Origin: a plasmid
Sequence record: NZ_CP084013.1
Reading direction: 5' to 3' (one strand)
Length of the DNA: 64,000 nt
Program-made: the position numbers and the translations under genes
Part shown: piece after piece, positions 19,033 to 50,409 of the stretch
How the letters are laid out: each line of letters begins with the position of its first letter
Position numbering within the stretch: position 1 is the stretch's first letter
The notes under the pieces: model-generated
The model's database searches: none
The model's input: only the letters and a program-made list of their open reading frames with translations
Told to the model about the DNA's origin: nothing

Positions 19033-19040
19033 TTTTTTGC

Positions 19041-19588: not shown

Positions 19589-19701
19589 AAAGCAACCTCC
19601 ACTCCTCTTGACGAAACTATTATAACACGCAGGTAATACCAATAGAATACCGCAGAAATGATACATGCCAGCAGAAGCCACAAAAAAACCGAGCCGCCTA
19701 A

Positions 19702-20751: not shown

Positions 20752-20845
20752 GTGGTCGCTCCGTTTCAGCGATTGCCAGATACCCGGCCGGTACGAACGG
20801 TGCGGGTATCTTTTTTCTTTTCGTCGTTATTTTATCGCGTTTTTC

Positions 20846-21090: not shown

Positions 21091-21124
21091 TCAGCCCTTA
21101 TGGCAGTAGGGCTAAGCGGCACCC

Positions 21125-21163
21125 CCAAGTGATATTACAAGTGATATTACAAGTGAATATACA
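21125..21163. repeat. 3 tandem 13-bp repeats (AAGTGATATTACA)
   Basis: agtgatattaca agtgatattaca agtgaatataca, followed by the CT-rich ctctctcttaatctctctc. Confidence 0.5.
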
Positions 21164-21365
21164 AACTCTCTCTTAATCTCTCTCCACTTCGACCCGCGAT
21201 CCACCGGGATGCCGCTGACGCGGCAAATGCCACACGCTCTCCTGCACCTGTTTCGACCTCGGAAAAGAAGAATCCAGTCGGTTCGCTTGGCAGCGAACCT
21301 CAGAGCAAACAAAAAAAAAGACTGAATCTCGGACGAACAGGATTGCCGTACTCGTTCTTTCTAGT

Positions 21366-21404
21366 ATCGGTTAATTTCAATAAATCTTCGGTTAATAACA
21401 AAAC
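21366..21404 (+). promoter_or_regulatory. motif-2 copy with two CGGTTAAT half-sites
   Basis: atcggttaatttcaataaatcttcggttaataacaaaac upstream of the FtsK-like gene. Confidence 0.5.
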
Positions 21405-21415
21405 TCGAAGATAGA

Positions 21416-24823: not shown

Positions 24824-24847
24824 CCAAACACAAAAAGGGGAAACAAC

Positions 24848-25567
24848 ATGCTCATCAACCTAGGAACAGACGTTCACGGGAAAAACCTTGGATGGGACAC
24901 GTCCACGGGAACGTCACTCACCATCACCGGGCCCGACGGAAGCGGGAAAACCATACTGCTTGACAGCATCATCCGACAGGCAGATCAGGACGGCACGCTC
25001 GTAACCTTCACCGACCAGCGGGACAGCATCCCACCCTCCCCCACCATCATGTGCGGACGCTACCGGCAACCCTATGAGCTACTGGAAATAGTGCAACGGG
25101 TCAGCATGGAACAGCGACGGCGCATCAAGGGCGAACCCGAGCCGATCAAGCCGATCAAGCCGATACTGCTCGCCTTCGATGACTATGACGTACACAACGG
25201 CTCCCCGGACATGAATCTGCTAAACGTCGGCAGTCAAATCTCCGACGAACTCAGCCGAATCATCGAAATGGCACCCGGAACGAACGTCAACGTGGTCATG
25301 GTCCGCAGCAGCATTCACCCATCCACAGTGGGTCAAAAGCTCTACGACCGGCTTATCGCCGGCAACCATGTGCTATTCCATCCGGCCGGACAGCTCGGCC
25401 CGCACACGCAACCTCTTTTCCACGCCGAAAACACCCGTGAAGCCGAAACCCTCACCTATCTCAACCGGCATTTGGACTTCAAACAGGCCCGCAATTGCCT
25501 GTACGAAACATCAGACAGGCCACTCCGGGCTTTCCATACCCCCATCTACAAGAGAAAGGAAAACTGA
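24848..25567 (+). CDS. small P-loop ATPase (degenerate FtsK-like domain)
   Basis: GPDGSGKT Walker A and LLAFDDYD Walker B. Confidence 0.45.
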   Translation: MLINLGTDVHGKNLGWDTSTGTSLTITGPDGSGKTILLDSIIRQADQDGTLVTFTDQRDSIPPSPTIMCGRYRQPYELLEIVQRVSMEQRRRIKGEPEPIKPIKPILLAFDDYDVHNGSPDMNLLNVGSQISDELSRIIEMAPGTNVNVVMVRSSIHPSTVGQKLYDRLIAGNHVLFHPAGQLGPHTQPLFHAENTREAETLTYLNRHLDFKQARNCLYETSDRPLRAFHTPIYKRKEN

Positions 25568-27414
25568 TGGCCGACCGTCGAAAGAAAATCCCTCTCGAAA
25601 AATTCTTCCCCAATGGTTTTGATAAAACCAATCCGGACGACATGATCAAACTCACCGTCCTCATCCAAGAGAAAGCCGCAAAGAACCCTGAGTTTGAAGG
25701 CTACAGCGTATTCAGCGTCGATTCCGACAACCGGTACGCGATCATCGCGCCGATGGATATGGATTCCGATGATATCAACAACGGAATCAAAGCCGTCAGA
25801 CTCAGCAACAGCGAATGCGCGGACACGGCTTCCCAGAAGAAGACGGTGCAGAACCTGGAAAGCCAACCCCAGTACGAAGGCTATTCCGTCGTCGATTTCG
25901 TTCGAATCAGTTCCAGCGAATTCCTTGTGTTGCTCCAACAGTTGGACGAGAAGGCCGCAGCCACCCGGCGTATATTCGCGAACGTTCTCAAGGTCAAGCC
26001 TTGGGAAATTCGTATCTCACGTACTCCTGAGAACGGTTGGAAAATCCGCATCAAGGAGAACACCGTCACCTATCAGGCCTCCGTATACGACAAGCGAATG
26101 CAGGAAGCCGTCGAAGTGGTCGGCAAAAAAGGCTGGTTCTTCAAGGCCGACCCCGAAAAAGGCGTCATCATGGTGTATCCCGGCACTCCCCCGACTTTTC
26201 CTGCGATGATAACCTGCCCGAAACAGCTGATCGGTAAAAACGACCTACGTCACGCCTATCTGGGCATGAAGCTGCCCGAACGAGGCCGCGAAACCGGCGA
26301 CTGGCTGTCACTCGACTGGAAGTCCGGCCCGGGAATCATGGTCGCCGCCGCAGCCAACAGCGGGAAAAGCGTTGTCATCAACACGCTCATCGCCGCCGCA
26401 CTGGAAGCCGGATTCCAGCTTGCCATCTGCGACGACGAGGACAAGAGCGTCGATTTTCAATGGTGCCGCCCATGGGTCATCACCCACGGCTGGGGTTGTG
26501 ACAGTCCCGAATCGGCTGCCGCGACGTTGATTCATGTGCTTGAGATCTGCTCCTACCGGTCGAAACTCATCAAACAGTACGGTGTCGAAAACTGGTGGGG
26601 GCTTCCCAAGGAAGAACAGGAAAAGAACCCCCTGCTGCTGCTTGTGTGCGATGAGGTGGCCCAATGGGCCGGAAGCGTCACCATTCCAAAGGTCAGCAAG
26701 GACAATCCGATGCGCATCCGAGCCGAGTATGAGGCAAGCATCCATGCGGCGAATATCACGTACGCGATGAAGATCACCCAGAAAGCCCGGTTCTCCGGTG
26801 TCTGCTTCCTGTTCTGCGGACAATCGACCCGCCTGCAGGACGGTTTCGACCCCGGTATGCGAGTCAATCTGACCACGGTCATCTCCCCTACCCTGCAACC
26901 CTCCACCGCTGTCGAAGAGCTGCTGGGAGGAGCGAAGGACTTCCCCGAGATACCGGAAAACATCATGCAACCGGGAATCTCCAGAGGAGCCGGCCTTATC
27001 AGGCTTCCCGGCATGAAACCCGTCATCTACAAGGGCTTCTACGAGGAGAACCAGAAGCAAAGGAAATCATACAGCGATCTGCTGCGTGAACGTCTGACCG
27101 CAATCCGACCGCCGGAAGGCGACATGAACTCGGGACACTGGTCATGGGATGAAATCGTAAATGCCCTGCCAACCGCCGCAGAAAAACCAGATGACGGCAT
27201 GATTGACCCCGGCGGGGATGAGGACGACGGGTTCCCCACAGACGGTTTCGGCGAGGACGGGCGTGATGTCGCAGACCGTGACAAGCCGTTGAAGGGTGCC
27301 GCCGCTGCGGCGCATGCGAGCAAACTGTATGCGGCTGGCGTTGATGTGCCGCACATGAGCGCCATCGATGCCGCTATGAATATCGGGCGCCTATCTGCCG
27401 AAAAAGGTCTATGA
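25566..27414 (+). CDS. FtsK/HerA-superfamily ATPase (soluble)
   Basis: Walker A AAANSGKS and Walker B LLLVCDEV; start taken at MADRRKK after a ggaaa RBS. Confidence 0.65.
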
Positions 27415-36041: not shown

Positions 36042-37268
36042 TCATGGGATGGTTGGCTGCACCCCTGCGACGTCAAGCGTGTTGGCGTCGCACTGCATCA
36101 CGGTAAGGTCGTAGCCTTTGTGACGCAGGTTCATCGCGGCTATCCGGTCGTCGTTCGACCGGTAGCCGCAGTTGCGGCAGCGGAACGTGTGCGTTTCCTT
36201 GTTGCGGTTCTTGCGGGACACGTATCCGCATCGGGGGCATGTCTGGCTCGTGTACGCTGGGTCCACTGCTATCGTGGCCTGCCCGTTGCGGGCGGCCTTG
36301 TATTCGATGAACGAGCGGAGTTGGCTGAACGCCCACGAGACTTGCACGTAACGTTGTTGGACTTTCACGGTTTCCGCCGTATTGCGGATGCCTGTGAGGT
36401 CTTCGAGCGTGAAGAGCGTGTCCTTGCCGTACTGGTTGACGAGTGCCTTAGAGACCTGATGGTTGATGTCGGTCATCCAACGGTTTTCTCGACTGCCTAT
36501 GGCTTTGAGACGTTTTCTCGCGCTGCGCGTGCCCCTGTGTTGCAACTGTTTGCGGAGTTCCTTGTATTTGCCGCGCCGGTGTTTCACCTCCTTCCCATCG
36601 TAGAAAACGGTGCGCTCCCCGTCGTAGGAGGTAGCAAGGAACCGGATACCCAGGTCGATGCCGACGATGGTCTTCGGATGTTCCGTGGCATCCGGCGTTG
36701 GGATGGTGACGGGGATGAGCAGATGCCATTTGTCCCGCTTGCGGATGAGGCGTGCGGTTCCGAACCTCCCATGCCGGTATTGGTCGGGAATGCTGGCCCA
36801 TTCGGCTTTCACTTTGATGCGCCCATCCATGACGGGGAGGCTGAACAGGCCTGTCTTGGTGGAGTACGAGTAGTCCCTGTTCCACAACAGGTCGGCACCG
36901 TCCGGCGCATACTGGGGTTTGATACTGTAATATGCTGGGATTTTCCTCCTCTTGCGCCTCTTCCCGTTCTTCTTACCTTTGCTCTCCTCGCGGAGGTTAG
37001 CGATTCGCGTGTGGATGGCCTTGTAGTTGGCGATGACCCGGCGTATCGCCGATTGGGTCATCTGCGCGAGCAGCCCATGGGTTTCGCGCAACTGGTGGTA
37101 GATGGCCTTGTTGATTTTCTTCTGGCTGAGCGTGTGCGTGGAGTCCACGTAGTCAGCCACGTCGTTGCAGCAGTCGGCGAACGTCGAACACAACGCTGCG
37201 AGAGCGTCCGCTTGCCGCCGTGTGGGCGATAGACGGACGCACATCGTCAACGTCAACTCAGCCATCAA
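36042..37268 (-). CDS. tnpB: solo TnpB (IS1341-like, IS605 OrfB family)
   Basis: 408 aa; zinc finger CPRCGY...CRNCGY; no adjacent tnpA. Confidence 0.8.
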   Translation of the reverse strand: MMAELTLTMCVRLSPTRRQADALAALCSTFADCCNDVADYVDSTHTLSQKKINKAIYHQLRETHGLLAQMTQSAIRRVIANYKAIHTRIANLREESKGKKNGKRRKRRKIPAYYSIKPQYAPDGADLLWNRDYSYSTKTGLFSLPVMDGRIKVKAEWASIPDQYRHGRFGTARLIRKRDKWHLLIPVTIPTPDATEHPKTIVGIDLGIRFLATSYDGERTVFYDGKEVKHRRGKYKELRKQLQHRGTRSARKRLKAIGSRENRWMTDINHQVSKALVNQYGKDTLFTLEDLTGIRNTAETVKVQQRYVQVSWAFSQLRSFIEYKAARNGQATIAVDPAYTSQTCPRCGYVSRKNRNKETHTFRCRNCGYRSNDDRIAAMNLRHKGYDLTVMQCDANTLDVAGVQPTIP

Positions 37269-37383: not shown

Positions 37384-37417
37384 GACTCTAGGAAAATGCC
37401 GGGTGGTTTTTACTTCC
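37384..37417. terminator. bidirectional hairpin terminator
   Basis: aaaatgccgggtggtttttacttcccggcatttt. Confidence 0.5.
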
Positions 37418-37429
37418 CGGCATTTTACC

Positions 37430-37453
37430 TGTTATACTGAATCTGTCCACATA
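37430..37453 (+). promoter_or_regulatory. motif-1 copy
   Basis: tgttatactgaatctgtccacata upstream of the DivIVA-like gene. Confidence 0.55.
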
Positions 37454-37486: not shown

Positions 37487-38311
37487 ATGCCCATCATCGA
37501 ATTCGACACGAAGATGCGAGGCTACGATCCCCAACAAGTCAATGACGCCGTAACCAATTTCCAGGACACCATCAACAAGTATGCGCAAGCAAACACTGAT
37601 CTGAAGAGAACCCTGGATACGGTCAACAACCAGTTCACCCAGGCAAACCAAGACATCGATCAGCTGCAAGCCGAAAACAAGAAGCTCTCCGAACGGATCG
37701 AAGAACTCGAAAAGCAGAACGACGATCTGGAAGCAAAACTCAAGAACAAGTACACGAGCGTGGGCGACGATGTGAGGAAACTCCTCGAAGACACCCAGAC
37801 CGTTTATCATGCTGCGGAAAAGAACGCAGCCGACATCAAGAACAAGGCGCTGCAGGAAGCTGAAAACATTCGCAAGCAGAGCCAGTCCGCCGCGGAGAAA
37901 GCGATAGTGGACGCGCGGCAGGTCGCCGAAAAGAACGTGAAGGAATCCCAAGCGAAGTCGAAGCAGATCATCGAATCCGCGCAGCAGTCCGCCGCACAGT
38001 TGCGTAAGGAAGCCGACTCGTATGCCACTGGACGGCAAAACATCGCGGAGCAGGCCGATGCAAGGGTTCGTGCGATTCTCGGCCGTCTTGAGGAGGCAAG
38101 CAAAGTGCTTGACAACGCCTACCAGTCCGGACGCAAGCCTAACGCCACTACAGTCCAGTCAGCTCCGAAGGATGCGCCAACACCGGTCATCGCCGGCCAG
38201 GCCACTAATCCGAACGAGGCGGATCTTGAAGACGATAGGACCATCGCCTTCGCTCAAATCCATGCGAAGAACACCGCATCCGCACCCGCGACCCCTGTTG
38301 ACGCCCAATAA
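37487..38311 (+). CDS. DivIVA-domain coiled-coil protein
   Basis: N-terminal DivIVA signature FDTKMRGYDPQQVNDAV followed by a long coiled coil. Confidence 0.65.
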   Translation: MPIIEFDTKMRGYDPQQVNDAVTNFQDTINKYAQANTDLKRTLDTVNNQFTQANQDIDQLQAENKKLSERIEELEKQNDDLEAKLKNKYTSVGDDVRKLLEDTQTVYHAAEKNAADIKNKALQEAENIRKQSQSAAEKAIVDARQVAEKNVKESQAKSKQIIESAQQSAAQLRKEADSYATGRQNIAEQADARVRAILGRLEEASKVLDNAYQSGRKPNATTVQSAPKDAPTPVIAGQATNPNEADLEDDRTIAFAQIHAKNTASAPATPVDAQ

Positions 38312-38326
38312 GACCATTCCCGGAAC

Positions 38327-38569
38327 GTGAGAATCTTGATCCTCCAATACGTAATGGTTATGACCGGAGGATATGCCAGTTCATGGCTTATCCTCCATGT
38401 CGGCATGCTGTTCGGGCAAGGCGCGAAGAACGCCGCTTCTCTGGACCGAATCAAGGAAGCCCGCTGTTGGAACATCGCATATTATCTGTGCGTCATCCTG
38501 ACGTTCCTGTGCGTCATTGCCGGATCATTGGGTCTCATGCTCCTGTTCAAGAAGCTGATCATTGACTGA
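38327..38569 (+). CDS. small membrane protein
   Basis: two hydrophobic helices. Confidence 0.3.
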   Translation: MRILILQYVMVMTGGYASSWLILHVGMLFGQGAKNAASLDRIKEARCWNIAYYLCVILTFLCVIAGSLGLMLLFKKLIID

Positions 38570-38783
38570 AAAAACATCCCTCAAGCAGTCCCGTAATCCT
38601 TTCCTGACCATCGGACGCTATGTCCGGCAGGTAATCGATGAAACCCGTAAGACGGTGACTCCAACCGCCCGCGAATGGATGGCCTGGAGTATTGCCGCAT
38701 TCGTGTTCGTCATCCTGCTCATGATATTGGTCACGGGCATGGATTTCGGGCTCGGCAAACTCACTCTCATGGTGTTCGGGTGA
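38562..38783 (+). CDS. secE: SecE-like preprotein translocase subunit paralog
   Basis: 73 aa; FLTIGRYVRQVIDETRKTVTPTAREWMAWSIAAFVFVILLMILVTGMDFGLGKLTLMVFG matches the SecE C-terminal TM pattern. Confidence 0.65.
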   Translation: MTEKTSLKQSRNPFLTIGRYVRQVIDETRKTVTPTAREWMAWSIAAFVFVILLMILVTGMDFGLGKLTLMVFG

Positions 38784-38964
38784 CGGTCACACATCCCGTG
38801 ACCCTTGCCATGCTGCTATGGATGGGTATCGCCCTGCTCACGTTTCTTCTCATGAGCGTATGGACGGATAATCCACAGCATCGCAGCACCTATCGCCATT
38901 GGGCTGTCGCATACCTGACAGCCCTGATCATCTTCATCGCCATCTTCTATTCCGAAGGAACCCT

Positions 38965-39207
38965 ATGGCCGTTCTCATCATCGTTTTGAAAACCATCGTC
39001 GCCGTCCTGAGCGTCCTGCTATCCCTGCTGATTCTTCTGCACAAAGGCAAGGGCGGGGGATTGTCCGACATGTTCGGCGGCGGCTTGACCGCAAACGCAG
39101 GCACATCCGGGGTCGCGGAGAAGAACCTCAACCGTTGGACGGTCGGCATCGCGATCCTATGGGTTTTGCTGATCGTCTCGATCAGCCTCATCGCAAAAAC
39201 CATCTGA
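38965..39207 (+). CDS. secG: SecG-like preprotein translocase subunit paralog
   Basis: LLILLHKGKGGGLSDMFGGG...AEKNLNRWTVGIAILWVLLIV is the SecG signature. Confidence 0.65.
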   Translation: MAVLIIVLKTIVAVLSVLLSLLILLHKGKGGGLSDMFGGGLTANAGTSGVAEKNLNRWTVGIAILWVLLIVSISLIAKTI

Positions 39208-39330
39208 CGAAACAGGAGACCTCATGCTAATTGCCATCATCTGCCTATTTACGGGCTTCACCCTTGGCTTCTTCACCGCAGCCCTATGCCAAGCAGCATC
39301 ACACTCAGATTCTGACAGAAAGGACAACCA

Positions 39331-39513
39331 ATGAAAAACAACTGGTTCTGCCCCAACTGCGGGCAGCCGATGGAAGCGCAACGCCACGTGGACAATCCCA
39401 CCGGCCGTATCACATGGACAATCGGCTGCCTCAACCCGAAACACTTCCACACGCGCGGCTACATGAACGCCGCCATCGCCGAAATCCAACTCGAAAAACT
39501 CCTCCACCAGTGA
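39331..39513 (+). CDS. small zinc-ribbon protein
   Basis: CPNCGQ...; stop overlaps the GTG start of the methyltransferase. Confidence 0.35.
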   Translation: MKNNWFCPNCGQPMEAQRHVDNPTGRITWTIGCLNPKHFHTRGYMNAAIAEIQLEKLLHQ

Positions 39514-41210
39514 AATACGTCAGCATCTTCAGCGGCATTGAAGCCGCCACCGTCGCATGGCATCCACTGGGATGGGAGCCGCTGGCCTTCAGCGAAATCG
39601 ACCCATTCCCCTCAACCGTCCTGCAACACCATTACCCGGATATCCCGAATCTTGGAGATATCACGAAAATCGATTGGAGCCCGTATGTGGGAGCAGCAGA
39701 CATTGTTGTCGGAGGTAGCCCCTGTCAAAGCTTCTCTGTCGCAGGCAAGAGGGAAGGACTCGCAGGAGCTTCCGGACTCATGTTCGAATACATTCGAGCG
39801 GTACGTGAACTCCGTCCACGTTGGTTTGTCTGGGAGAACGTCCCAGGAGCGTTCACAAGCGAGCGGGGGGAGGCTTACCGCCAGCTCCTGTCAGAGATGG
39901 ATGCGCTCGGGTATGGTCTGGCATGGCGAGTATTGGATGCGCAGTTTTTCGGTGTGGCCCAAAGACGCGAGCGTGTGTTCCTTGTTGGAAGTCTTGGAAC
40001 CATGCGTTGCGCGGAAGTACTTTTTGAGCGCGAAAGCCTGTCGTGGAATCATCAGTCGAGCCGACAGAAGAGGCAAGCCCTTACCGAAGAGGCTCAGGAA
40101 CGCGTTGGAGAAGCAGATCATGATTCTGGCTGCCTGAATCCCGGCGAAACCCAGAGTCGAAGGGTTTATCCGGCTTCCGGCGTATATCCGACGTTGTCCA
40201 CGAGAGAAAAGTCAGGGCAAAATCAGGAAAGCGTTTTCACCCAGTTCGGTGATGATGTCGCCGGCACTCTCACCTCACGATACGATAGTTCCCCCTGCGT
40301 TGACCGTGGAGCAAACGTCGTCGTTGACGAACGGGATAAAGTATTCCTTTGCCAGACGGCGCAAACCGGCAGCAACGGGAAACTCGTCAAACAGGACGAT
40401 GTAATGAACACGTTGGATCGGACGAACAGCACCGCAGTGGCCGCATTGGACTTCAATCCGACCGATGCCAGACTCCGGTATGCGAATGATGACGTCAGCC
40501 AGACATTGACCGCACGGGCCGGAACCGGAGGCAACCAAGTCCCATTGGTGCAGGTGCAGCCGCTCGCGTTCCTGTATAACCAAGGTGCGAAGGCCCGGAG
40601 TCTAGGGATAAGTGAAATAAGCCCTACGTTAAAAACCGACCATAATCCGGTTGCAGCATTCGCTTCAAATCAGCGTGACGAGGTTCGTGAACTGGAAGTC
40701 GCAGGCGCATTGGCCGCGCAGCCTGGCATCAAACAGCAGACGTACATCTGCCGGGCCGACGGACAGACGAACGCGATGGAAGGCGAAAATCTCGCTCCCA
40801 CGTTGACCTCGCACGCGAAGAAGGATCCACCGCTCATCTATCCTGCTGAAGATTCAACCGGGGAAGATGAGCCTGTCACCTCGCAGATTCACGGCGGGAA
40901 ACCCGGCGGCGGGAAAGGTGCCTTAATCCAACGGGATATGAGCGCCACATTGTCCACTCATAACACCCAGACGCCGATAACAGGCGACCACGAGAAGAGA
41001 GATCTCACCGTCCGTCGGCTGACACCACGAGAATGCGAACGCTTGCAAGGCTTCCCCGACGATTACACCGATATCCCATACCGCAACAAGGAACACGCTC
41101 CGGACGGTCCCCGTTACAAGGCGTTGGGCAACAGCATGGCCGTACCGGTCATGCGATGGATCGGAGAACGCATTCGGACGGTCGAAGAAGCCGCCGAAAC
41201 AACCGATTAG
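39510..41210 (+). CDS. DNA (cytosine-5)-methyltransferase, orphan
   Basis: motif I FSGIEA, motif IV GGSPCQSFS, motif VI ENVPG, C-terminal motifs RECERLQGFPDDY...NSMAVPV; no adjacent restriction endonuclease. Confidence 0.8.
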   Translation: MKYVSIFSGIEAATVAWHPLGWEPLAFSEIDPFPSTVLQHHYPDIPNLGDITKIDWSPYVGAADIVVGGSPCQSFSVAGKREGLAGASGLMFEYIRAVRELRPRWFVWENVPGAFTSERGEAYRQLLSEMDALGYGLAWRVLDAQFFGVAQRRERVFLVGSLGTMRCAEVLFERESLSWNHQSSRQKRQALTEEAQERVGEADHDSGCLNPGETQSRRVYPASGVYPTLSTREKSGQNQESVFTQFGDDVAGTLTSRYDSSPCVDRGANVVVDERDKVFLCQTAQTGSNGKLVKQDDVMNTLDRTNSTAVAALDFNPTDARLRYANDDVSQTLTARAGTGGNQVPLVQVQPLAFLYNQGAKARSLGISEISPTLKTDHNPVAAFASNQRDEVRELEVAGALAAQPGIKQQTYICRADGQTNAMEGENLAPTLTSHAKKDPPLIYPAEDSTGEDEPVTSQIHGGKPGGGKGALIQRDMSATLSTHNTQTPITGDHEKRDLTVRRLTPRECERLQGFPDDYTDIPYRNKEHAPDGPRYKALGNSMAVPVMRWIGERIRTVEEAAETTD

Positions 41211-41269: not shown

Positions 41270-42020
41270 CAGCGATAGGCCACGATCTTGTTCAGGATTT
41301 CCTTTTGTTCGGCGAAATCACCAGAAGCAAGAAGAATCATGGCCGTCGCTCGACTCCGCAAGGAAAATCAAGTGGACAACACCCTCCTAGGAGATCAAGA
41401 TCGTGGCCTATCGGTGTAAATGTATTCACCGATAGGCCACTATCGTTCGTTCTCGTTCTTACTGCTATAAAAGAGTATGTCCAGTATGTAGTATGACTAT
41501 AAGCACTGCCCGTCAGCCCTTATAGGAGAAGCGGTTTGAGCAGGTTCGTTACACCGATAGTCCACGGATTCGGCAGTGATATTCCACGGAAACGACACTG
41601 ATAGGTCACTAAAACAGCAGCGATAGTCCACTATCATTGCATGGATACTCCACGTTGCAAGACCATCGTCAAAGGCGATTGCACCGATAGTCCATCATTG
41701 GATGCACCGATAGGCCACTATCCGCGAAAAGTGCCGGATAGTGGCAGTATACAAGGCATGGAACCGTCGGATAAGCAACGCAGTAATACTGCGGAAGAAA
41801 GGTTTTTGCACCGATAGGCCATCAACAGAGACAAGAAAACAGCATCGATAGGCCACTACGTGTGGGATGAAATCCACGAATCAACTTCAAAAAAATTGGG
41901 AAACTGCACCGATAGGCCACGTGTCGATACAGCGATATGCCATCAGCATCAAAAACCGACTGCATTAAGCACTGATCTGCATCAGCGAATAAGGTGGGAC
42001 GATTAGTGGCCTATCGCTGC
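41270..42020. repeat. array of at least 12 copies of CACCGATAGGCCAC-like 14-mers (both orientations)
   Basis: copies near 41276, 41403, 41428, 41551, 41596, 41620, 41685, 41708, 41738, 41810, 41848, 41901, 41926 and 42005; about 750 bp without a credible ORF. Confidence 0.7.
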
Positions 42021-42991
42021 CAATCGCCCCGCCCCTCGTCCAAAGCACGCCGTTCCGCCTTGGGTGGGACGGACGTTGGCGACGGGTGCAGGATGATGCC
42101 GTCCCGGGTGGTTTCCACGTTCGCGGCGGGATACACGTCGTGAATCTTCTTCAATGCTTCACGGAACTTGGCTTTGAACACGCGGCGTTCCTTGATGCTG
42201 TCGCCGAAACGTCCGTGCAGCCAATCCCAATCCAATGTGAGGTCGTGATGCAGGTTGCGGAATGTTCCGGTCAGCCACACGTACACGTCGTAGGGGAGCA
42301 CTGATTTGCCGGACAGCAGGTAGTTGGTGGCACGAGTGTCGAATGGTGCCGACTCCTGGGCGAGCCTGTCCCACACTTCATCGGTGAGGATGAACTTGGC
42401 GCCGCTGAAATCCTGATTATTGTTATCGTTCAGGAAGCTGACGGCCTTCACCATCTGCATGTTCACGGAGTCGAACCGATCCCGGTTGCCCGCAAACCCG
42501 GTTTTCTGCCTGATGCTGATATGACAGTACAGGAGACGGCGCAACTGTTCCTGCAAACGTTTCGATGACTGTCCTCCACGGGGTATGCCGAGCTCTTCGG
42601 ACAACTGGTACATGCTGGGAATCGTGATGGTGTGCTGCGACGGGTCAACGGTCGGGGTTTTCCTTGTTCCCGCAGAGCGAATCTGCTTTGCCATCCACGC
42701 CATCAACAGTCGGGGATATTTCCCGTAGGGGAAGTCCCTTGACCTGGTGAGGCTATCGATACCGGCTTCGAGGATGTATTCGACGGTACTGTTGTCTTTG
42801 CTGACGAAGTCGGTGCCTTCCGCCGGGGGAGTGGCGGGGAAAAGGGTGCTGGTGAGGATGCTGTGCCCGTACCAGATTTCCTTACTGTCCGGCAAACGGT
42901 TTTCGATGTCTGAGATCGTGGCTACCCGGTCGAGCACGAGGTCGGTTGAATGGGTAGCTGGTTTCGTGTTGTCCGGACTGTTGTTGGTCAT
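42011..42991 (-). CDS. RepA-like replication initiator (paralog 2)
   Basis: paralog of 19702..20751; 14-mer array at its 3' side; motif-2 copy about 110 bp upstream. Confidence 0.5.
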   Translation of the reverse strand: MTNNSPDNTKPATHSTDLVLDRVATISDIENRLPDSKEIWYGHSILTSTLFPATPPAEGTDFVSKDNSTVEYILEAGIDSLTRSRDFPYGKYPRLLMAWMAKQIRSAGTRKTPTVDPSQHTITIPSMYQLSEELGIPRGGQSSKRLQEQLRRLLYCHISIRQKTGFAGNRDRFDSVNMQMVKAVSFLNDNNNQDFSGAKFILTDEVWDRLAQESAPFDTRATNYLLSGKSVLPYDVYVWLTGTFRNLHHDLTLDWDWLHGRFGDSIKERRVFKAKFREALKKIHDVYPAANVETTRDGIILHPSPTSVPPKAERRALDEGRGDWQR

Positions 42992-43750: not shown

Positions 43751-44136
43751 TGGGGCTGACAGGCTTTCGATAGCCTGCCGGAAACCATTTGCTACGTGCC
43801 GGAGGCCGGTAAGGACAACCGTCATCAACCTTGCCACAAGAATAGACGCCAACACCGTTTCTTCTTCCCGTTTCACCCTCGTAGCGTGAAACCCGACTTT
43901 GATCCCATTGCCGATTAACGGGTCAAAGCCGGAAAACTTTGAATCGGACTGGTCGGACAGTCGGACGATGGATTCGCCCGACCAGTACATGAACATCGTC
44001 TACAAGCCGTGCGGGTTCGCCGAACGCACCCGTCCACGGATGATCTTCCCCACGCAAGTGGGGATAAACCTACGCACGTGACAGCAAGCAAAGGCTGACA
44101 GCAGGCCAGATCCGAGTTCGATTCTCGGCAGCTCCA
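43751..44136 (+). ncRNA. ssrA: tmRNA (ssrA-like), tag reading frame (A)NTVSSSRFTLVA
   Basis: 5' GGGGCUGACAGGCUUUCGAUAGCC matches the tmRNA P1/P2 consensus; 3' GAGUUCGAUUCUCGG CAGCUCC A forms a T-arm with an acceptor strand complementary to the 5' GGGGCUG; tag ORF GCC AAC ACC ... GTA GCG TGA at about +95. Confidence 0.6.
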
Positions 44137-44244
44137 CGACCCTGATCCATCTCCCATGAGCTTGTGCAGACTCACGGTCTGCGGGTACAGATGAATCGGG
44201 CACGGTACGCATCGCACCGTGACGGACGACAGAAGCGATGCACC

Positions 44245-44326
44245 GGTGGTGTGGCCCAGCGGCGACGGCAGCAGACTGTAAATCTGCGACAAGGAAACAC
44301 CGGAGGTTCGAGTCCTCCCGCCACCA
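44245..44326 (+). tRNA. tRNA-Tyr(GTA), long variable arm
   Basis: acceptor GGUGGUG/CGCCACC, anticodon loop cuGUAaa, T-loop UUCGAGU. Confidence 0.65.
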
Positions 44327-44525
44327 CTATCCGCCTGGTTGCAAACAGGCGGATTAACAGGTAGCGGCGCCTTCAAGGCCGTGCTGTGGTTTTCGTTTGC
44401 ACACAGTATCTAAACAACAAACGGATTTTATCCGCTGTCAGGCCAGTCTCATTAGTCTGACAGCGAACGGTAAAAGCCGGAATGATACGCGCCATGAGAC
44501 GACGCGTTCCGGCCGGCTTCGTAGC

Positions 44526-44585
44526 TCAAACGGCGGAGCATGCATGGTTGGTGGTTCGAATCCACCCGGAGCCACGTTTTTGACA
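44526..44585 (+). pseudogene. tRNA-like element lacking the anticodon arm (60 nt)
   Basis: acceptor, D-arm and T-arm (GGUGG UUCGAAU CCACC) present but only 10 nt between D and T arms. Confidence 0.35.
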
Positions 44586-44821
44586 GGTCTTACAACCGGA
44601 GAGTCGAGGACTGTGAAGAAAAACTGGAAGAGCGTGCAAATCCTAGGTCGCACGCTTGGAAGGGGAGGTTTCGCAGGAGGTTAGGAAAACCGGTGGAGAC
44701 AGTCTAAACACGCGAAAGAATCAAGATGAAAGCATCGTGGTACTGGCTTAAGACGGTGCCAGAATCTGAGGAAATCGCGTTTAATAGGGCACGTACGTAG
44801 CTGGTAAGCCACGGAGTCCTG

Positions 44822-44895
44822 TCAAAAATATCGGATTGTGGCGCAGTTTGGTAGCGCACGTGCTTTGGGAGCATGGGGTCGCAGGTTCGAATCCT
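44822..44895 (+). tRNA. tRNA-Pro(TGG)
   Basis: cloverleaf with anticodon loop uuUGGga. Confidence 0.65.
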
Positions 44896-44975
44896 GTCAA
44901 TCCGACTCGGAGACCAGCCATCCCTCTTTCGGCTGGCGGACTATACGTCACCGCCGTGCGACGTATCCGAAAAAA

Positions 44976-45050
44976 GCACGGCAATGCGGATGTGGTGCAG
45001 TGGCAGCACGCCTGCTTCCCAAGCAGGAAACCGCGGGTTCGAACCCCGTC
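44976..45050 (+). tRNA. tRNA-Gly(CCC), CCA encoded
   Basis: acceptor GCGGAUG/CAUCCGC, loop uuCCCaa. Confidence 0.7.
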
Positions 45051-45185
45051 ATCCGCTCCATCCGGAAAACCAAAACAATGGATCTGATCCAACAATGGGA
45101 CTCGTAACCGTCCTTTCCATGGGACGTTTCCGGAGAAACATGGACGAACAGCCTCGGCATGGGCGCACATCGTCTAGGAAGAAAA

Positions 45186-45257
45186 CATGCCAGTCGCCCC
45201 GGTAGCTCAGAGGAAGAGCAGGTGCCTTTTAAGCACTGGGTCCGGATATCGTAATTC
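45186..45257 (+). tRNA. tRNA-Lys(TTT), atypical T-loop AUCGUAA
   Basis: acceptor GCCCCGG/UCGGGGC, loop cuUUUaa. Confidence 0.55.
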
Positions 45258-45431
45258 CGTCGGGGCACGATGCTTGGTACATCGCCGAGCATAAGCGCAT
45301 CAATCTATTATCGGATAGGCTGCGGCAACTTCTTCTTCCGGCCGCGCGCGAAACAAGGGAAGGAAAACACACAGTGCGACGGACCAGGGAAGGGCCTATA
45401 ACCCAGATCCCATAACAGTCCGTCGTACGGT

Positions 45432-45503
45432 GCCTCTGTAGCTTAAATGGTAGAGCAACGGTCTGAAGCACCGTGGATGCTGGTTCGATTCCAGACGGAG
45501 GCA
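45432..45503 (+). tRNA. tRNA-Phe(GAA)
   Basis: loop cuGAAgc, T-loop UUCGAUU. Confidence 0.6.
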
Positions 45504-45831
45504 CGAAGCAATCCATCCGATCAATGGACTGCTTTCAGGGAGTGATCGAACAATCGCATCGGAAACGAGGCGATAAGATGAGCCGGGCCCGGCAGGGTGG
45601 TTTGCGACCGAACCGGCGGCACGTCCAGAGGGGATCTGACATGATCTCGTTTGTCCTCGACGTTGCTGGTAAAACCCAATCCAGTCTCCCGATTCCCCTC
45701 CATCTGTCATTCAGGACGGATGGGGAGGACGCTCTTTTTGCAGCGATGGTCTCCGGAGCGACATCAATGAGGACCATGCCGAACACGGCCCGGCACAGGC
45801 GTACGTCGTTAAAGGAACGAAATGTGCCATC

Positions 45832-45907
45832 GCCCTCGTAGCTCAATCGGATTCAGAGCGTTGGTCTACGGAACCGGAGGTTGCGGGTTCGAACCCCGCC
45901 GAGGGCA
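45832..45907 (+). tRNA. tRNA-Arg(ACG)
   Basis: acceptor GCCCUCG/CGAGGGC, loop cuACGga. Confidence 0.7.
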
Positions 45908-45958
45908 CTCGGAGCAGGAAGCTATTCCGCTGCCTATCTTCGGCTTCCTGCTCCACAT

Positions 45959-46033
45959 GCGTCGGTAGCTTAACGGCAGAGTACCGGTCTCCAAAACCGG
46001 TGGGTGTGAGGTCGAGACTCACCCGACGTGCCA
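45959..46033 (+). tRNA. tRNA-Trp(CCA), CCA encoded
   Basis: anticodon stem CCGGU/ACCGG, loop cuCCAaa. Confidence 0.6.
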
Positions 46034-46157
46034 GGACGGTATTGTTTGGCTCCTTACTCACTCACGGATTCGTCAAGCCGAATGATACCGTTCCACCCGG
46101 TTCCGATCGTCGTTTGAAGGATTTCCTATTCTCTTCGGCTGTTCGACCGGAACCATC

Positions 46158-46239
46158 GCCCCGTTGGCGGAACTGGTAGACGCATCCGGCTCAAACCCGG
46201 ATTCCTGACGGAGTGAGGGTTCAACTCCCTCATGGGGCA
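46158..46239 (+). tRNA. tRNA-Leu(CAA), long variable arm
   Basis: loop cuCAAac, T-loop UUCAACU. Confidence 0.65.
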
Positions 46240-46493
46240 CTATCCGTTGGAACCTTTTCGCACTCGCTTTGAAAAGATTTCAACGGATATTCTTCCGATT
46301 GGCGTGCCTAGTTTCTTTCTTCTTTCATTGACAGGTACGGCATGTTCCAGCTGCCTTGGAGTCGGACAGTGGAAGAAAAAAACGACTCCAAATAATCTTG
46401 GATGGCCGGTTTGAAAACAGATAACCAATGCGAAATTACTCCTTTGGAAAAGGGTTGTCGCTTTTTCTTGAACCACCCGGCCATCCACCATCC

Positions 46494-46568
46494 GCTTCCG
46501 TAGCTCAGTGGAATCAGAGCAGACGGCTTCTAATCGTCCGGTCGTGGGTTCGAATCCCACCGGGAGCA
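46494..46568 (+). tRNA. tRNA-Arg(TCT)
   Basis: loop cuUCUaa, T-loop UUCGAAU. Confidence 0.7.
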
Positions 46569-46618
46569 CGAGATCCACACGAATACGTCAACCAGTTTGT
46601 TCCTTCGTGCGGATCGGT

Positions 46619-46703
46619 GGAGTAGTGGCAGAGCGGTCGAATGCGACTGTCCCGAAAGCAGCAGGGGCGCAAGCCCCCGGAGGTTCGAATCCTCCCTACT
46701 CCG
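46619..46703 (+). tRNA. tRNA-Ser-type (long variable arm), anticodon tentatively CGA
   Basis: acceptor GGAGUAG/CUACUCC, T-arm GGAGG UUCGAAU CCUCC; anticodon loop parse ambiguous (C33). Confidence 0.45.
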
Positions 46704-46782
46704 CGAACCCCGCATGAAAATCGTTCCCATGAGGGGTTTATCGAGGTTTGGCCGGTGTGCCCCGTACTGAAAACACTGGCAT

Positions 46783-46868
46783 GGATGGTGGGCCGTGCGG
46801 CAAAGGCGCAGTCCTGCTAAGACTGTTGGGGCGGAAGTCCCTGGCGAGTTCGACTCTCGCACCATCCG
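46783..46868 (+). tRNA. tRNA-Ser(GCT), long variable arm
   Basis: anticodon stem CAGUC/GACUG, loop cuGCUaa. Confidence 0.65.
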
Positions 46869-46985
46869 CTAGCCGATCTGCAGTGATAGGCCACGGGATA
46901 GGACCTGGAATCCAGTCAGCAAAACGGGTTGGATCGGCATGGCGGAACGCAGTCGGGCATACGTGTCCGATGCGTTCGCGCACAT

Positions 46986-47056
46986 TCCTCCTTGGTGTAA
47001 CGGCAGCACACGGGTCTTTGGAACCCATAGTCCTGGTTCGAAACCAGGAGGAGGAG
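46986..47056 (+). tRNA. tRNA-Gln(TTG)
   Basis: U1-A72, loop cuUUGga, T-loop UUCGAAA. Confidence 0.6.
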
Positions 47057-47164
47057 CTTAGCGGCAGCACCTCGAATTGATTTTCCCTCTACACTCGATT
47101 CGACGTTTGTTGTACCGGACATACAGGAGGTCAGGCGCCAACCCAAGCCGCGAAACGACGCCAC

Positions 47165-47237
47165 GCCCTTGTAGCTCAGTGGATAGAGCGTCCGTCTCCG
47201 GAACGGAAGGCCACGAGTCCGATTCTCGTTGAGGGCA
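47165..47237 (+). tRNA. tRNA-Arg(CCG)
   Basis: loop cuCCGga. Confidence 0.65.
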
Positions 47238-47332
47238 CGCACGAAAACTCCGCCAACCATAATGCACGGAGCCCTTCTTCTCTTCTCTCTCAAACCGTCG
47301 CGCCTCGTACGGCTCGTGCATCACGAGGCAAC

Positions 47333-47405
47333 GCCCTTGTAGCTCAACGGATAGAGCGCCGGTTTCCTAAACCGGGCGCAGCCGGTCCGACTCCGGCCAT
47401 GGGCA
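47333..47405 (+). tRNA. tRNA-Arg(CCT)
   Basis: anticodon stem CCGGU/ACCGG, loop uuCCUaa. Confidence 0.65.
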
Positions 47406-47409
47406 CGAT

Positions 47410-47483
47410 GCCTTGTTAGCTCAGTCGGTTAGAGCGCGGAGCTCATAACTCCATGGTCGTTGGTTCAAGCCCAACACGAGGCA
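47410..47483 (+). tRNA. tRNA-Met/Ile2 (CAT) copy 1
   Basis: loop cuCAUaa, T-loop UUCAAGC. Confidence 0.6.
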
Positions 47484-47615
47484 CTAGGATACCGTCGTCA
47501 ACGTCACCGCCTGTTCTCTCGATCCATGGGGAATGGGGATGGAGCGATGGATGGCATTGCAGCTTTTAGTCCTTTCAGCTTAGGCTAAGCCGTTCAGCGT
47601 CGGCATCCGATAATC

Positions 47616-47689
47616 GCATTGCTAGCTCAGTCGGTTAGATCACCCTGCTCATAACGGGGAGGTCGTTGGTTCGATTCCAGCGCAATGCA
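47616..47689 (+). tRNA. tRNA-Met/Ile2 (CAT) copy 2
   Basis: acceptor GCAUUGC/GCAAUGC, loop cuCAUaa. Confidence 0.6.
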
Positions 47690-47820
47690 CGAGTGCCGTA
47701 TTTTGACGGTTCCCGCACTCGGTAAAAACGGAACCGTTGGAGTCCCGACCGGCCTCCGTCGTGATAAATCCCCGGTCAGGCAAACGCATGGGTCGTACGA
47801 TCATGACGCGCAACCGTGCG

Positions 47821-47890
47821 GGGCGTTGGTGTAATGGCAGCACGCCACCCCCTGTGGGTGGAGATCCGGGTTCGAATCCCGTGGCGTCCG
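47821..47890 (+). tRNA. tRNA, anticodon uncertain (possibly CTG, Gln)
   Basis: T-arm CCGGG UUCGAAU CCCGU; anticodon stem CCACC/GGUGG; short, G-U-rich acceptor. Confidence 0.4.
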
Positions 47891-47931
47891 CTAAGGAATC
47901 CGCTTCTGATACGGTGTGCGGATTCCTGTTT

Positions 47932-48003
47932 GCGGTGTTAGCACAACGGTTAGTGCCTCAGTCTTCCAAACTGATTACGCGGGTTCGATTCCCGTACACC
48001 GCT
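47932..48003 (+). tRNA. tRNA-Gly(TCC)
   Basis: acceptor GCGGUGU/ACACCGC, loop cuUCCaa. Confidence 0.7.
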
Positions 48004-48421
48004 CGATACGATTCCATGCCCGTTGGGAGTTCCCGGCGGGGAAGCCATGACCATGCGACTCGTGTCCGATGATCCGCGCCTCCGTTTGTTCGACGGACAC
48101 GCGGATATCGCCGGCGCCCATCATTCCAGGATGATGCGAACAGCCCCCGTCGGAGGGGTCGGCGCGAATCCGATCTGCCCATCCGCCAAGTGCGGACAGG
48201 GTTTCCTGAGTCGTAATCGATTACGCCTCTTGTCAGCCGATCCACATGATGTGGAAACGGTCTCGGTGGAGCATGGGCGTCATAGCCCGTGATCCTCGTC
48301 ATGCCTCATGCCGTAGTATGCGCGTCCACCGCAAGCATGAGTGCAAGGATCCGGCACGAGTGGCCGGATCGATTGTGGACTGTGCGGATATTGCGACCTC
48401 GCAAGGGTGGTATCCGCACAT

Positions 48422-48495
48422 GCTTTCGTAGCCCAACCGGTAGAGGCAACAGTCTAAGGAACTGTCCAGTCCGGGTTCGAACCCCGGCGAAAGCA
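48422..48495 (+). tRNA. tRNA with anticodon AAG (class I, atypical)
   Basis: acceptor GCUUUCG/CGAAAGC, anticodon stem ACAGU/ACUGU, loop cuAAGga, short variable arm. Confidence 0.45.
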
Positions 48496-48756
48496 CCAGC
48501 GGAAGCAACGGCGTCAACGCCACCCGATCCGGTTCGAACGTCTGACGGAACGGGAACGATGCTACGGTAGGTTCTCTCCATAACTGGGACCCGTAACCGT
48601 TGCAGCGCCCACTTCCGCTCATATTCTTGCGGAATATGATGTCAACGCCACCACCCGCCCGCTGCCATATTGGGGCGGAGTGGAACGATGGTCAAGGCGC
48701 AGGCCTGCACCTCAGTGGCCTGAACAGAACCGCCTCTCCAGCATCGTATCCGCAAC

Positions 48757-48831
48757 ACCGCTTCGTCCTTTAACGGTAGGATGCTCTGTTTTTTTTTGGA
48801 GTAATGCGGGTTCGAATCCCGTCGAAGCACG
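48757..48831 (+). pseudogene. degenerate tRNA-like sequence with T9 run in anticodon region
   Basis: T-arm GCGGG UUCGAAU CCCGU present but the anticodon arm is disrupted. Confidence 0.3.
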
Positions 48832-48968
48832 ATGGGCCCAGTGGCCACATGCGAAAAAACTGGGTTCCCGAATGGGAGCAGTCTGTGGCCGATGGCATGA
48901 ACCGGCCGCAGGACAAGCATCCCTGCCTCGCATGGCCCATCCGCCGTTCCTCATGCCGGAACGGTTCC

Positions 48969-49041
48969 GCCGTCGTAGCTCAGCTGGCAGAGCAGCGCCC
49001 TCGTAATGCGCAGGTCACCGGTCCGAATCCGGTCGATGGCT
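48969..49041 (+). tRNA. tRNA-Thr(CGT)
   Basis: acceptor GCCGUCG/CGAUGGC, loop cuCGUaa. Confidence 0.65.
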
Positions 49042-49066
49042 CTTTCTCCACTAAAAACCGACCTGT

Positions 49067-50409
49067 TTGGCCTTTCGCTGTTTGGTGTGGGTGGGTCTGT
49101 CAGGTGGTGACGGTGCTGAGGTCGAGTTTGCCGCAGGTCAGGTAGATCATGGTGCTGAAGTAGCCCATGTTCTTGAATCCGCGGGCTCGGGTCTTGACGT
49201 TCTGGATGACGCTGTTGAGTCCTTCGAGGATCGCGTTGGTGTAGGGGTGGTCGAAGTAGGCGAGGATGTCCCGCCAGTGGCGGCGTATCTGGCGGGCGAA
49301 CTCTTTCATGGGTTCGAGTCGGGAGCGCGTCATCCACGAGCACAGACGCTTGAGGGCCGTCTCGGCCTCGGCTCGATCGGCGCTGGTGTCGTAGATGTCC
49401 TGGAGGGTCTCGCGCATCTGACAGGCGCGTCCGGTTTTCAATCGTCGCCGTTGCAGGCTGCGCTTGGTTTCCAATTGCAGGCCGGTCAGGTTCGATTCGT
49501 TCCTCAACCACAGGTACTTGGTCCGCTTGAGCAGCGCGTTGCCGCGGGCCTCCTGTTTGCGGACCTTGTCGACGGCCTCGTTGGCGTGTTTGATCACGTG
49601 GAACTTGTCGATGATTCTCGCCGCGTTGGGCAGCCGCTCGCGGATGCCCTTGGCGAACCCCAGGCTCATGTCGCAGGTAACCAGACGCACCCGGTCGGGA
49701 TCGCCGTTGTGATCCATGAAATCCCGCGCGAACCGTTTGATCGTGGTCGAGTCCTTGCCCGGGACCACGCAGATTACGTTGCGCTCCACCAGGTCGGCGA
49801 CCACGGTGATGTACCGGTGGCCCTTCCGGCTGGTCTCGTCGATGCCTATGGCCTCCACGCCCGTGTAGTCCTCGTAAAGCCTCGCCTCGTCCACGTAATG
49901 GCGGATGAACCGCCACAGGCGGGTGTCATGTTCGCCGACCTGCTCGGCGATGTCCGCGACCGGCTGGCTTTTGGCCAGCTCCACGACCATCGCCTCGAAC
50001 AGGAGCGTGAACCCGCTTCCCGGCCTCGCCCACGGCACCGGGACCGCGTGCACGCCGTGGGCGGGGCACGTCACGCGCGGCACGCCCGCGTGAATGAACG
50101 CCTTGTACTGGAAGAAGTTCAGATGCCGCCACACGCGCTCCCTCGCGTCATGCACCGGACACGCGGCCTCGCCGCACCCCGGTTCCGGGCAGGGGAACCG
50201 CGAACCCGCCGCGAACCCGATCGCGATATGCAGTTCCCGTCTGCCGTCCTCCTCGTCACGGAACTCCACGCCCGACACCCTCCACGGGTCAGGCAGTTGC
50301 AGAGCGGCGGTGAACAACGACGTGGTATCCATACCCCCCAAACTACCCGACCAGCACCACCACCCCCCGACCCACTCACCCACACCAAACAGCGAAAGGC
50401 CAAAAAATA
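49067..50409 (-). mobile_element. ISL3-family insertion sequence
   Basis: about 32-bp terminal inverted repeats TTTGGCCTTTCGCTGTTTGGTGTGGGTG at 49067-49097 and 50361-50397 (inverted), flanking a transposase gene. Confidence 0.65.
49100..50332 (-). CDS. ISL3-family transposase
   Basis: MDTTSLFTAALQLPDPWRV N-terminus and overall ISL3 transposase architecture (410 aa). Confidence 0.8.
   Translation of the reverse strand: MDTTSLFTAALQLPDPWRVSGVEFRDEEDGRRELHIAIGFAAGSRFPCPEPGCGEAACPVHDARERVWRHLNFFQYKAFIHAGVPRVTCPAHGVHAVPVPWARPGSGFTLLFEAMVVELAKSQPVADIAEQVGEHDTRLWRFIRHYVDEARLYEDYTGVEAIGIDETSRKGHRYITVVADLVERNVICVVPGKDSTTIKRFARDFMDHNGDPDRVRLVTCDMSLGFAKGIRERLPNAARIIDKFHVIKHANEAVDKVRKQEARGNALLKRTKYLWLRNESNLTGLQLETKRSLQRRRLKTGRACQMRETLQDIYDTSADRAEAETALKRLCSWMTRSRLEPMKEFARQIRRHWRDILAYFDHPYTNAILEGLNSVIQNVKTRARGFKNMGYFSTMIYLTCGKLDLSTVTT

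Follow-up and report, generated by a model that had tools for sequence, protein, structure and literature searches.

The 64,000 nucleotides of plasmid record NZ_CP084013.1 that were analysed (the window, in whose coordinates all positions are given unless another accession or locus is named) carry paralogs of SecE and SecG in close succession. They lie in a single compact operon of eight open reading frames (ORFs) at 37487-41210 on the plus strand, running from a gene for a DivIVA-domain protein to one for an orphan DNA methyltransferase (Dcm). The features of the locus, including small ORFs with transmembrane (TM) segments and candidate ribosome-binding sites (RBS), are as follows:

37409-37438, plus strand: promoter-like site, TTTACT-18-TATACT with a TG extension (consensus match only, from a scan whose number of matches was not above shuffled expectation)
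about 37470, plus strand: RBS AGGAGA before the DivIVA-domain gene, from sequence
37487-38311, plus strand: coiled-coil protein of 274 aa with a DivIVA domain, encoded by the opening gene of the operon (PF05103)
38360-38569, plus strand: TM1, a small membrane ORF of 69 aa, with an 8-nt overlap between its stop and the SecE start
38562-38783, plus strand: SecE paralog, 73 aa, TTG start (PF00584, TIGR00964)
38780-38989, plus strand: TM2, a small membrane ORF of 69 aa with two TM segments, joined to the SecE stop by a GTGA overlap and to the SecG start by a 25-nt overlap
38965-39207, plus strand: SecG paralog, 80 aa, two TM segments (PF03840, TIGR00810)
39224-39334, plus strand: unannotated single-TM ORF of 36 aa with RBS AGGAGA and an ATGA overlap with the next ORF
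39331-39513, plus strand: zinc-ribbon ORF, 60 aa (weak zinc-ribbon Pfam matches only)
39510-41210, plus strand: orphan C5 cytosine DNA methyltransferase (Dcm), last gene of the operon, with a GTGA overlap with the zinc-ribbon ORF
41430-41445, plus strand: terminator-like site, the sole one on this strand in a consensus scan

SecE and SecG are ordinary members of their families in an unusual carrier. Both exceed the curated cut-offs of Pfam (SecE, PF00584: 44.4 against 22.7 bits; SecG, PF03840: 54.5 against 29.2 bits) and of the NCBIfam equivalog models (TIGR00964: 50.3 against 27.55; TIGR00810: 57.1 against 30.85), and these models were the sole NCBIfam matches of the two proteins. By hydropathy, SecE has an amphipathic N-terminal helix followed by one C-terminal TM segment (hydrophobic segment at residues 36-69), and SecG has two TM segments (1-30 and 55-80) around a glycine-rich loop. 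The SecE core pattern R/K-Q..(D/E)E..K.V.P...E ... FG aligns with chromosomal and outgroup SecE, and the SecG loop HKGKGGGLSDMFGGG is identical in chromosomal Bifidobacterium SecG. Sequence searches of solved structures gave weak matches (E 0.4-0.9 for SecE, 0.006-0.04 for SecG) because the proteins are short. A preliminary description of the window had proposed a SecE-like and a SecG-like gene between the DivIVA-domain gene and an orphan methyltransferase, and both the family assignments and the position are borne out. Additions to it are the three small membrane ORFs, the zinc-ribbon ORF, the RefSeq gene names and the secY genes of sister plasmids.

All five deposited plasmids already have the two genes named secE and secG in RefSeq (PGAP). 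The genes are undiscussed in the searchable literature: the searchable pMP7017 papers, which do not include the 2015 discovery paper, make no mention of SecE, SecG, DivIVA or translocase. New are the element-conserved tandem under selection, its linkage to the replicon, transfer-messenger RNA (tmRNA) and tRNA genes, and the captured SecY of sister plasmids.

The window belongs to a pMP7017-family conjugative megaplasmid of Bifidobacterium longum, and a chromosome is excluded. Its nucleotide identity is 96-99% to four complete B. longum plasmids (184-198 kb) and ~86% to B. breve pMP7017. Besides this similarity it shows the other family traits: a RepA_C replicase, a tmRNA/tRNA array and the domains of a type IV secretion system (T4SS) of Gram-positive type. 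There is neither nusG 3' of secE nor pgk-tpiA 5' of secG in the window, and the locus is therefore non-chromosomal. The earlier supposition that these are paralogs on a mobile element thus holds, given the megaplasmid identity, the T4SS genes and the lack of a secE-nusG context.

The plasmid genes were compared with the chromosomal secE and secG by identity and by phylogeny. Window SecG shares 59-71% identity with its chromosomal Bifidobacteriaceae counterparts and is nested among them in a neighbour-joining tree, in which the megaplasmid and B. breve element proteins form a clade with 100% bootstrap support. Window SecE is 45-48% identical to chromosomal Bifidobacteriaceae SecE (B. primatium, Gardnerella, Scardovia) and falls in a separate cluster. 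When 1.84 billion representatives were searched exhaustively with a profile, the best non-element matches of SecE were Bifidobacteriaceae chromosomal proteins; a word-indexed search returned element-type SecE alone. Plasmid SecE and SecG therefore share family, size, topology and core motifs with the housekeeping subunits, their closest non-element relatives being the Bifidobacteriaceae chromosomal proteins. Judged from these comparisons, they are old paralogs of Bifidobacteriaceae origin, not foreign genes.

The plasmid genes differ from the housekeeping ones in arrangement. On chromosomes secE precedes nusG and secG follows pgk-tpiA, whereas the plasmid pair is in tandem and interleaved with element-specific small membrane ORFs. 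Among 80 chromosomal secG loci from species-representative genomes, none had secE within 6 kb. Chromosomal secG came after pgk-tpiA in all five Bifidobacteriaceae-type loci inspected, and chromosomal Gardnerella secE had nusG next to it. The SecE-SecG tandem is specific to mobile elements. The order SecE then SecG, immediate or close, recurs in at least five element types, listed here under six entries:

pMP7017-type plasmids
an IMG/VR contig of 187 kb, with a tRNA array directly 5' of the pair
fourteen IMG/VR group-2 contigs of 32-217 kb, 12 of them above 109 kb
a B. adolescentis-type element (locus L030), also with a CHAP hydrolase
an integrated element of B. breve, on contigs up to 2.59 Mb (829 index blocks with the B. 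breve-type SecG)
a lower-GC (~50%) element with SecE, SecG, SecY and CrgA in a row, adjoining an intein-bearing NrdD

The copies on the other element types likewise score above the cut-offs of the canonical equivalog models, and SecG and SecE of the window type are each on record for over 1000 contigs. The replicon, tmRNA and tRNA array are more consistent neighbours of the pair than DivIVA. In four element types a tmRNA, a tRNA array or both are found no more than a few kb from it, and in the group-2 contigs, whose RepA is 56% identical to that of the window, the order SecE-SecG, Rep, tmRNA, tRNA array was found in all four contigs checked for RNA genes. In the B. breve element the pair has FtsK-like and DnaN-like proteins on one side and a zinc-ribbon ORF, DUF2637 (locus L005, 8544-9269) and a lysozyme/CHAP hydrolase on the other; a tRNA array is nearby and an FctA/SdrD_B surface protein lies 7.5 kb from the pair. 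Backbone proteins of this element are 27-41% identical to those of the megaplasmid and SecG is 84-85% identical, which implies either very strong constraint or module exchange between elements. The low-GC element (loci L008 and L009, 4771-7141; contigs to 111 kb) also has as neighbours a dCMP deaminase and an anaerobic ribonucleotide reductase split by an intein with a LAGLIDADG endonuclease.

SecE and SecG are under purifying selection, with ratios of nonsynonymous to synonymous substitution rates (dN/dS) of 0.12-0.32. The ratios were computed by the Nei-Gojobori method for the window against three other elements, and dS ranged from 0.35 to 1.4 across the SecE and SecG comparisons:

against pMP7017: SecE 0.154 (dS 0.93), SecG 0.154 (dS 0.35), RepA_C replicase (42011-42991) 0.07, DivIVA 0.20, TM1 0.36, TM2 0.35, zinc ribbon 0.28
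against the B. breve integrated element: SecE 0.26, SecG 0.13, zinc ribbon 0.24
against IMG/VR contig 2687453622: SecE 0.32, SecG 0.12, TM2 0.37, zinc ribbon 0.09

The GC content at third codon positions (GC3) is plasmid-like in both genes (SecE 0.68, SecG 0.79; plasmid genes 0.60-0.79).

Four complete B. longum relatives also carry a secY for a 456-aa protein, 20-31 kb from secE and secG, and thus hold a full SecYEG set. The plasmid SecY scores 404.6 with TIGR00967 (cut-off 253.6) and fails the SecY2 models (162 against 353; 149.9 against 249.6). Its identity with chromosomal Bifidobacterium SecY, 88-89%, roughly equals that among the chromosomal proteins themselves, and in clustering at 90% it groups with the chromosomal SecY of B. 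angulatum and B. merycicum. Its GC3 is 0.947, compared with 0.60-0.79 for plasmid genes. In CP146883 the gene is bracketed by IS200/IS605 tnpA/tnpB copies (NZ_CP146883.1, 20587-25460), and in CP143940 it is followed by whiB and IS200/IS605 (NZ_CP143940.1, 29767-33065). The high GC3, the insertion-sequence flanks and the identity to chromosomal SecY together make the plasmid secY look like a recent chromosomal capture. In the window, the ~30-43 kb segment of the relatives with secY, a type I-E CRISPR-Cas system and dnaB is replaced by an ISL3 transposase (49100-50383, minus strand), which points to an IS-associated deletion or rearrangement in this plasmid. The same segment of the relatives also holds whiB, FemAB, an IspD-like gene and a second DivIVA-domain gene.

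Successive genes of the operon overlap by 8, 4, 25, 4 and 4 nt, which indicates co-expression. The layout indicates predicted co-transcription of the operon genes and translational coupling with the small membrane proteins. The pair's partners are not universal: this holds for the DivIVA-domain gene, TM1, TM2 and the 36-aa ORF. The DivIVA domain is recognised at residues 6-62 (PF05103: 41.5 bits against a gathering cut-off of 28), and the protein is no Wag31 equivalent by NF050102 (31.1 bits against a cut-off of 260). The pMP7017 ortholog stays under the Pfam cut-off with 27.2 bits. This gene is the least conserved of the operon, being 39-42% identical between window and pMP7017 compared with 78-90% for SecE and SecG, and the pair has no DivIVA-domain gene as a neighbour in the B. 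breve integrated element, locus L015, L030 or the low-GC element.

TM1, labelled 'hypothetical' in RefSeq relatives, is 46-47% identical to its pMP7017 counterpart, with the dN/dS of 0.36 given above. TM2 is 68% identical to that of pMP7017 and 79% to that of L015 (dN/dS 0.35-0.37). The 36-aa ORF is kept, though with amino-acid substitutions, in plasmids of the B. longum type (L001, L011, L012, L015) and is missing from pMP7017 and the B. breve element. The zinc-ribbon ORF is common to three element types; its copies (64-100% identical) come after SecG in pMP7017, L015 and the B. breve integrated element. One source labels it 'Lar family restriction alleviation protein', a label not reproduced by Pfam. 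TM1, TM2 and the zinc-ribbon ORF had nothing above threshold in Pfam, NCBIfam or PHROGs. The Dcm matches PF00145 (196 bits), TIGR00675 and the PADLOC models MTase_II and oMTase, and no restriction enzyme adjoins it. Membership of the operon in a defence system was considered and rejected: no small protein of the operon matched a PADLOC model, and the DivIVA matches were coiled-coil noise. Three metagenomic ORFs (P0142, P0143, P0094) are in-frame fusions of TM1 to the SecE C-terminus or of TM2 to SecG, which could be natural deletion variants or assembly chimeras.

The remaining features of the window that bear on replication and conjugation are:

42011-42991, minus strand: RepA_C-type replicase (PF04796)
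43752-49042, plus strand: tmRNA (43752-44139) and an array of 20-21 tRNA genes (ARAGORN, Rfam)
9213-27414, plus strand: span of the conjugation genes (Pfam)
9213-13634, plus strand: VirB4-like AAA_10 ATPase (Pfam)
14468-15769, plus strand: secreted lysozyme/CHAP hydrolase with an N-terminal anchor (Pfam)
21416-24823 and 25495-27414, plus strand: FtsK/SpoIIIE proteins, multi-TM (Pfam)

Signal or anchor and TM segments were seen in the hydrolase, g15766 and FtsK1. The replicase at 42011-42991, one of two RepA_C replicases coded in the window according to Pfam, is 89-92% identical to its pMP7017 ortholog, which adjoins the tmRNA/tRNA region there, and 56% identical to that of the IMG/VR group-2 elements. 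The tmRNA and tRNA array of pMP7017 have been described (PMC10832533). The tmRNA tag is ANTVSSSRFTLVA in the window and ANTVSSSRFTLAA in published pMP7017, a difference of one residue; a different tmRNA (tag AKTNSSRNFQLAA) occupies the equivalent post-replicase position in the IMG/VR group-2 relatives.

The closest published analogue is found in Hodor conjugative megaplasmids, which belong to Bacillota: their SecY-SecG-SecE operon lies by giant secreted proteins and is proposed by the authors of that study to export giant surface proteins (bioRxiv 2026, PMC12934698). Both groups are large conjugative megaplasmids of the gut with a T4SS, canonical-type Sec subunits and very large surface proteins. 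Hodors are classed as viral by virus-identification pipelines (PMC12934698), and bifidobacterial contigs are likewise listed as viral in IMG/VR. The bifidobacterial elements differ in phylum and replicon, and their core is SecE-SecG with secY outside the operon or absent. Their operon has DivIVA, small membrane ORF, zinc-ribbon and Dcm partners and is linked to the tmRNA/tRNA array. A Hodor-type trigger factor and sortase B are unannotated on 1-175 kb of the 184-kb CP143940.

The preliminary description had also compared the pair with Asp4 and Asp5 of the streptococcal accessory Sec system. Asp4 is SecE-like and Asp5 SecG-like, both ~20% identical to the canonical subunits, and they work with SecY2, SecA2, Asp1-3 and glycosyltransferases encoded in a chromosomal island (PMC5076819). 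The likeness lies in an extra SecE-like gene directly before a SecG-like gene and in the export of a large surface adhesin in streptococci (PMC5076819). Membership in the Asp4/Asp5 families did not stand. Plasmid SecE and SecG score above the cut-offs of the canonical models and share 45-71% identity with their chromosomal counterparts, in contrast to the ~20% of Asp4/Asp5, and SecY of the sister plasmids fails the SecY2 models. The accessory partners are likewise unannotated: SecA2, SecY2, Asp1-3 and glycosyltransferases on the same part of CP143940, and Asp1-3, glycosyltransferases and a serine-rich-repeat substrate in the window operon and in the annotation read for the complete relatives.

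An actinobacterial parallel is found in Pseudarthrobacter chlorophenolicus, whose megaplasmid pACHL01 (NC_011879.1, 427 kb) has annotated secY, secG and secE in regions rich in hypothetical genes. DUF2637 stands beside secG there, as it does beside the pair in the B. breve element. In pACHL01, however, DUF2637, secG and secY are together and secE is 38 kb away, and its SecY shares no more than 47% identity with that of the bifidobacterial plasmids. SecY and SecE are also encoded on related plasmids of Arthrobacter and Paenarthrobacter. No discussion of these Micrococcaceae plasmid sec genes was found in the searchable literature.

The reading that we favour, with a probability of roughly 0.55, is that these are canonical-type SecE and SecG, long resident on the elements, which pair with SecY and support export of the element's proteins. 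The plasmid subunits would bind SecY, either the host copy or, in most B. longum megaplasmids, the plasmid's own, and so form additional or hybrid SecYEG channels. Such channels may increase or safeguard the cell's ability to handle the insertion and export of membrane and surface proteins made by the element. T4SS parts, the cell-wall hydrolase and large adhesins of the FctA type are candidate cargo; CP143940 codes for a 2564-aa FctA-domain protein, distant from the sec genes. SecE shields SecY from degradation in E. coli, so that more channels could result from extra SecE. The benefit would be one of capacity, of establishment in new hosts or of reduced burden. The pair might then belong to a 'self-sufficiency' cargo, beside the replicon with its tmRNA and tRNA array, that makes the element less dependent on its host. 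Probably the elements top up or customise the host export machinery in this manner, and that the subunits are dedicated translocon components, as had been proposed earlier, is plausible.

Several points weigh against this. SecG is dispensable in model bacteria, which makes the selective benefit less evident. No secY is present in pMP7017, the B. breve element or the 64-kb window, and for these hybrid complexes with host SecY must be assumed. The link of the sec genes to any cargo is circumstantial. Sortase, signal peptidase, SecA and trigger factor are unannotated on 1-175 kb of CP143940. The pMP7017 transcriptome paper and its supplement contain no mention of these genes and no rows for the relevant locus tags. 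The SecE and SecG trees are weakly supported, the proteins being short.

The surroundings of the genes allow other readings. The preliminary description had considered polar-targeting factors for the T4SS, and one can imagine the DivIVA-domain protein recruiting SecE, SecG and the small membrane partners to the pole as a private channel for the conjugation machinery. DivIVA, TM1, SecE, TM2 and SecG do share one overlapping operon on an element with a T4SS, CrgA, an actinobacterial division protein, comes after SecY in the low-GC element, and genes for the conjugative lysozyme/CHAP hydrolase and a g15766 homolog are found 1.4-8 kb away from the pair in both the B. breve element and L030. The suggested co-occurrence with the T4SS is seen in that proximity; in the group-2 elements the 10-kb flanks have no T4SS gene, and a VirB4-like scan matched close B. 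longum-type relatives only. Polar targeting itself is suggested by gene adjacency, which is not conserved: the DivIVA-domain gene is the most divergent (39-42%), under the Pfam cut-off in pMP7017 and missing beside the pair in four element types, TM1 and TM2 are not universal, and SecE and SecG are canonical-type, not specialised. We consider this reading unlikely. Slightly easier to entertain, if still doubtful, is a 'portable translocon kit', in which SecE, SecG and the small membrane partners, sometimes with DivIVA, CrgA or SecY, would turn host SecY into a channel specific to the element and needed when it establishes itself or mates in new hosts. The kit would act with the tmRNA and tRNA array, as part of a general strategy by which very large plasmids make protein synthesis and export independent of the host.

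The plasmid subunits could also replace those of the host, which would exclude rival elements or phages or blunt Sec-targeting agents, the operon then being part of an establishment or anti-restriction region. SecE has clearly diverged from the host copy (45-48%), the pair is predicted to be co-transcribed with the orphan Dcm and the zinc-ribbon protein that one source names Lar-family, and the Enc34-type single-stranded-DNA-binding (ssDNA-binding) protein and PD-(D/E)XK nuclease upstream of the operon resemble a leading or establishment region. The Lar name is unconfirmed by Pfam, however, PADLOC has no match for the small proteins, no toxin or inhibitor partner was identified, and the conserved core motifs of SecE and SecG favour normal function; such interference is quite improbable. 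Least credible of all is that the genes are neutral passengers, duplicated housekeeping genes acquired by chance without a selected role on the element. The B. longum plasmid secY, missing from pMP7017 and the window, does resemble such a recent pick-up. SecE and SecG, on the other hand, keep dN/dS at 0.12-0.32 at dS up to 1.4, plasmid-like codon usage and an invariant gene order, and the pair is retained across elements whose RepA is 56% and whose backbone proteins are 27-41% identical. Neutral hitch-hiking is disfavoured because of this selection and conservation.

Essential housekeeping machines are usually presumed to be supplied by the host, and here widespread elements of human-gut bifidobacteria keep their own SecE-SecG. 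Seen alongside the Hodor and Arthrobacter-group megaplasmids, this suggests a strategy to which very large conjugative plasmids have come repeatedly. It may bear on plasmid host range and fitness cost, on the display of surface adhesins and on secretion engineering in probiotic bifidobacteria. pMP7017 in B. breve UCC2003 offers a genetically tractable system for direct tests.

A phage origin of the locus was considered and rejected, as neither DNA nor protein matched among 50,697 phage records; PHROG has no family for SecE, SecG, TM1, TM2 or the zinc-ribbon ORF. The IMG/VR 'viral' contigs with secE and secG are the same megaplasmids. Filed as viral are pMP7017-type contigs and a related group of 110-217 kb (loci L011-L034 and L118-L130), probably owing to phage-like genes (tail lysozyme, Enc34 ssDNA-binding protein, DUF2815, PD-(D/E)XK nuclease).

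Other observations concern the rest of the window. The VirB4-like ATPase (1473 aa) contains a Hom_end homing-endonuclease segment at residues 938-1031, which suggests an intein inside this T4SS protein (9213-13634). A HipA-family toxin kinase adjoins the second RepA_C replicase of the plasmid (17441-18751 and 19702-20751, both on the minus strand). A solo TnpB (IS605 OrfB / Cas12f-like TNB domains; 36042-37268, minus strand) lies between a 510-aa gene and the DivIVA-domain gene, which are ~100 bp apart in CP143940, where the TnpB insertion is absent. Additional TnpB copies are found in the window at 3294-4952 and 7030-8151.

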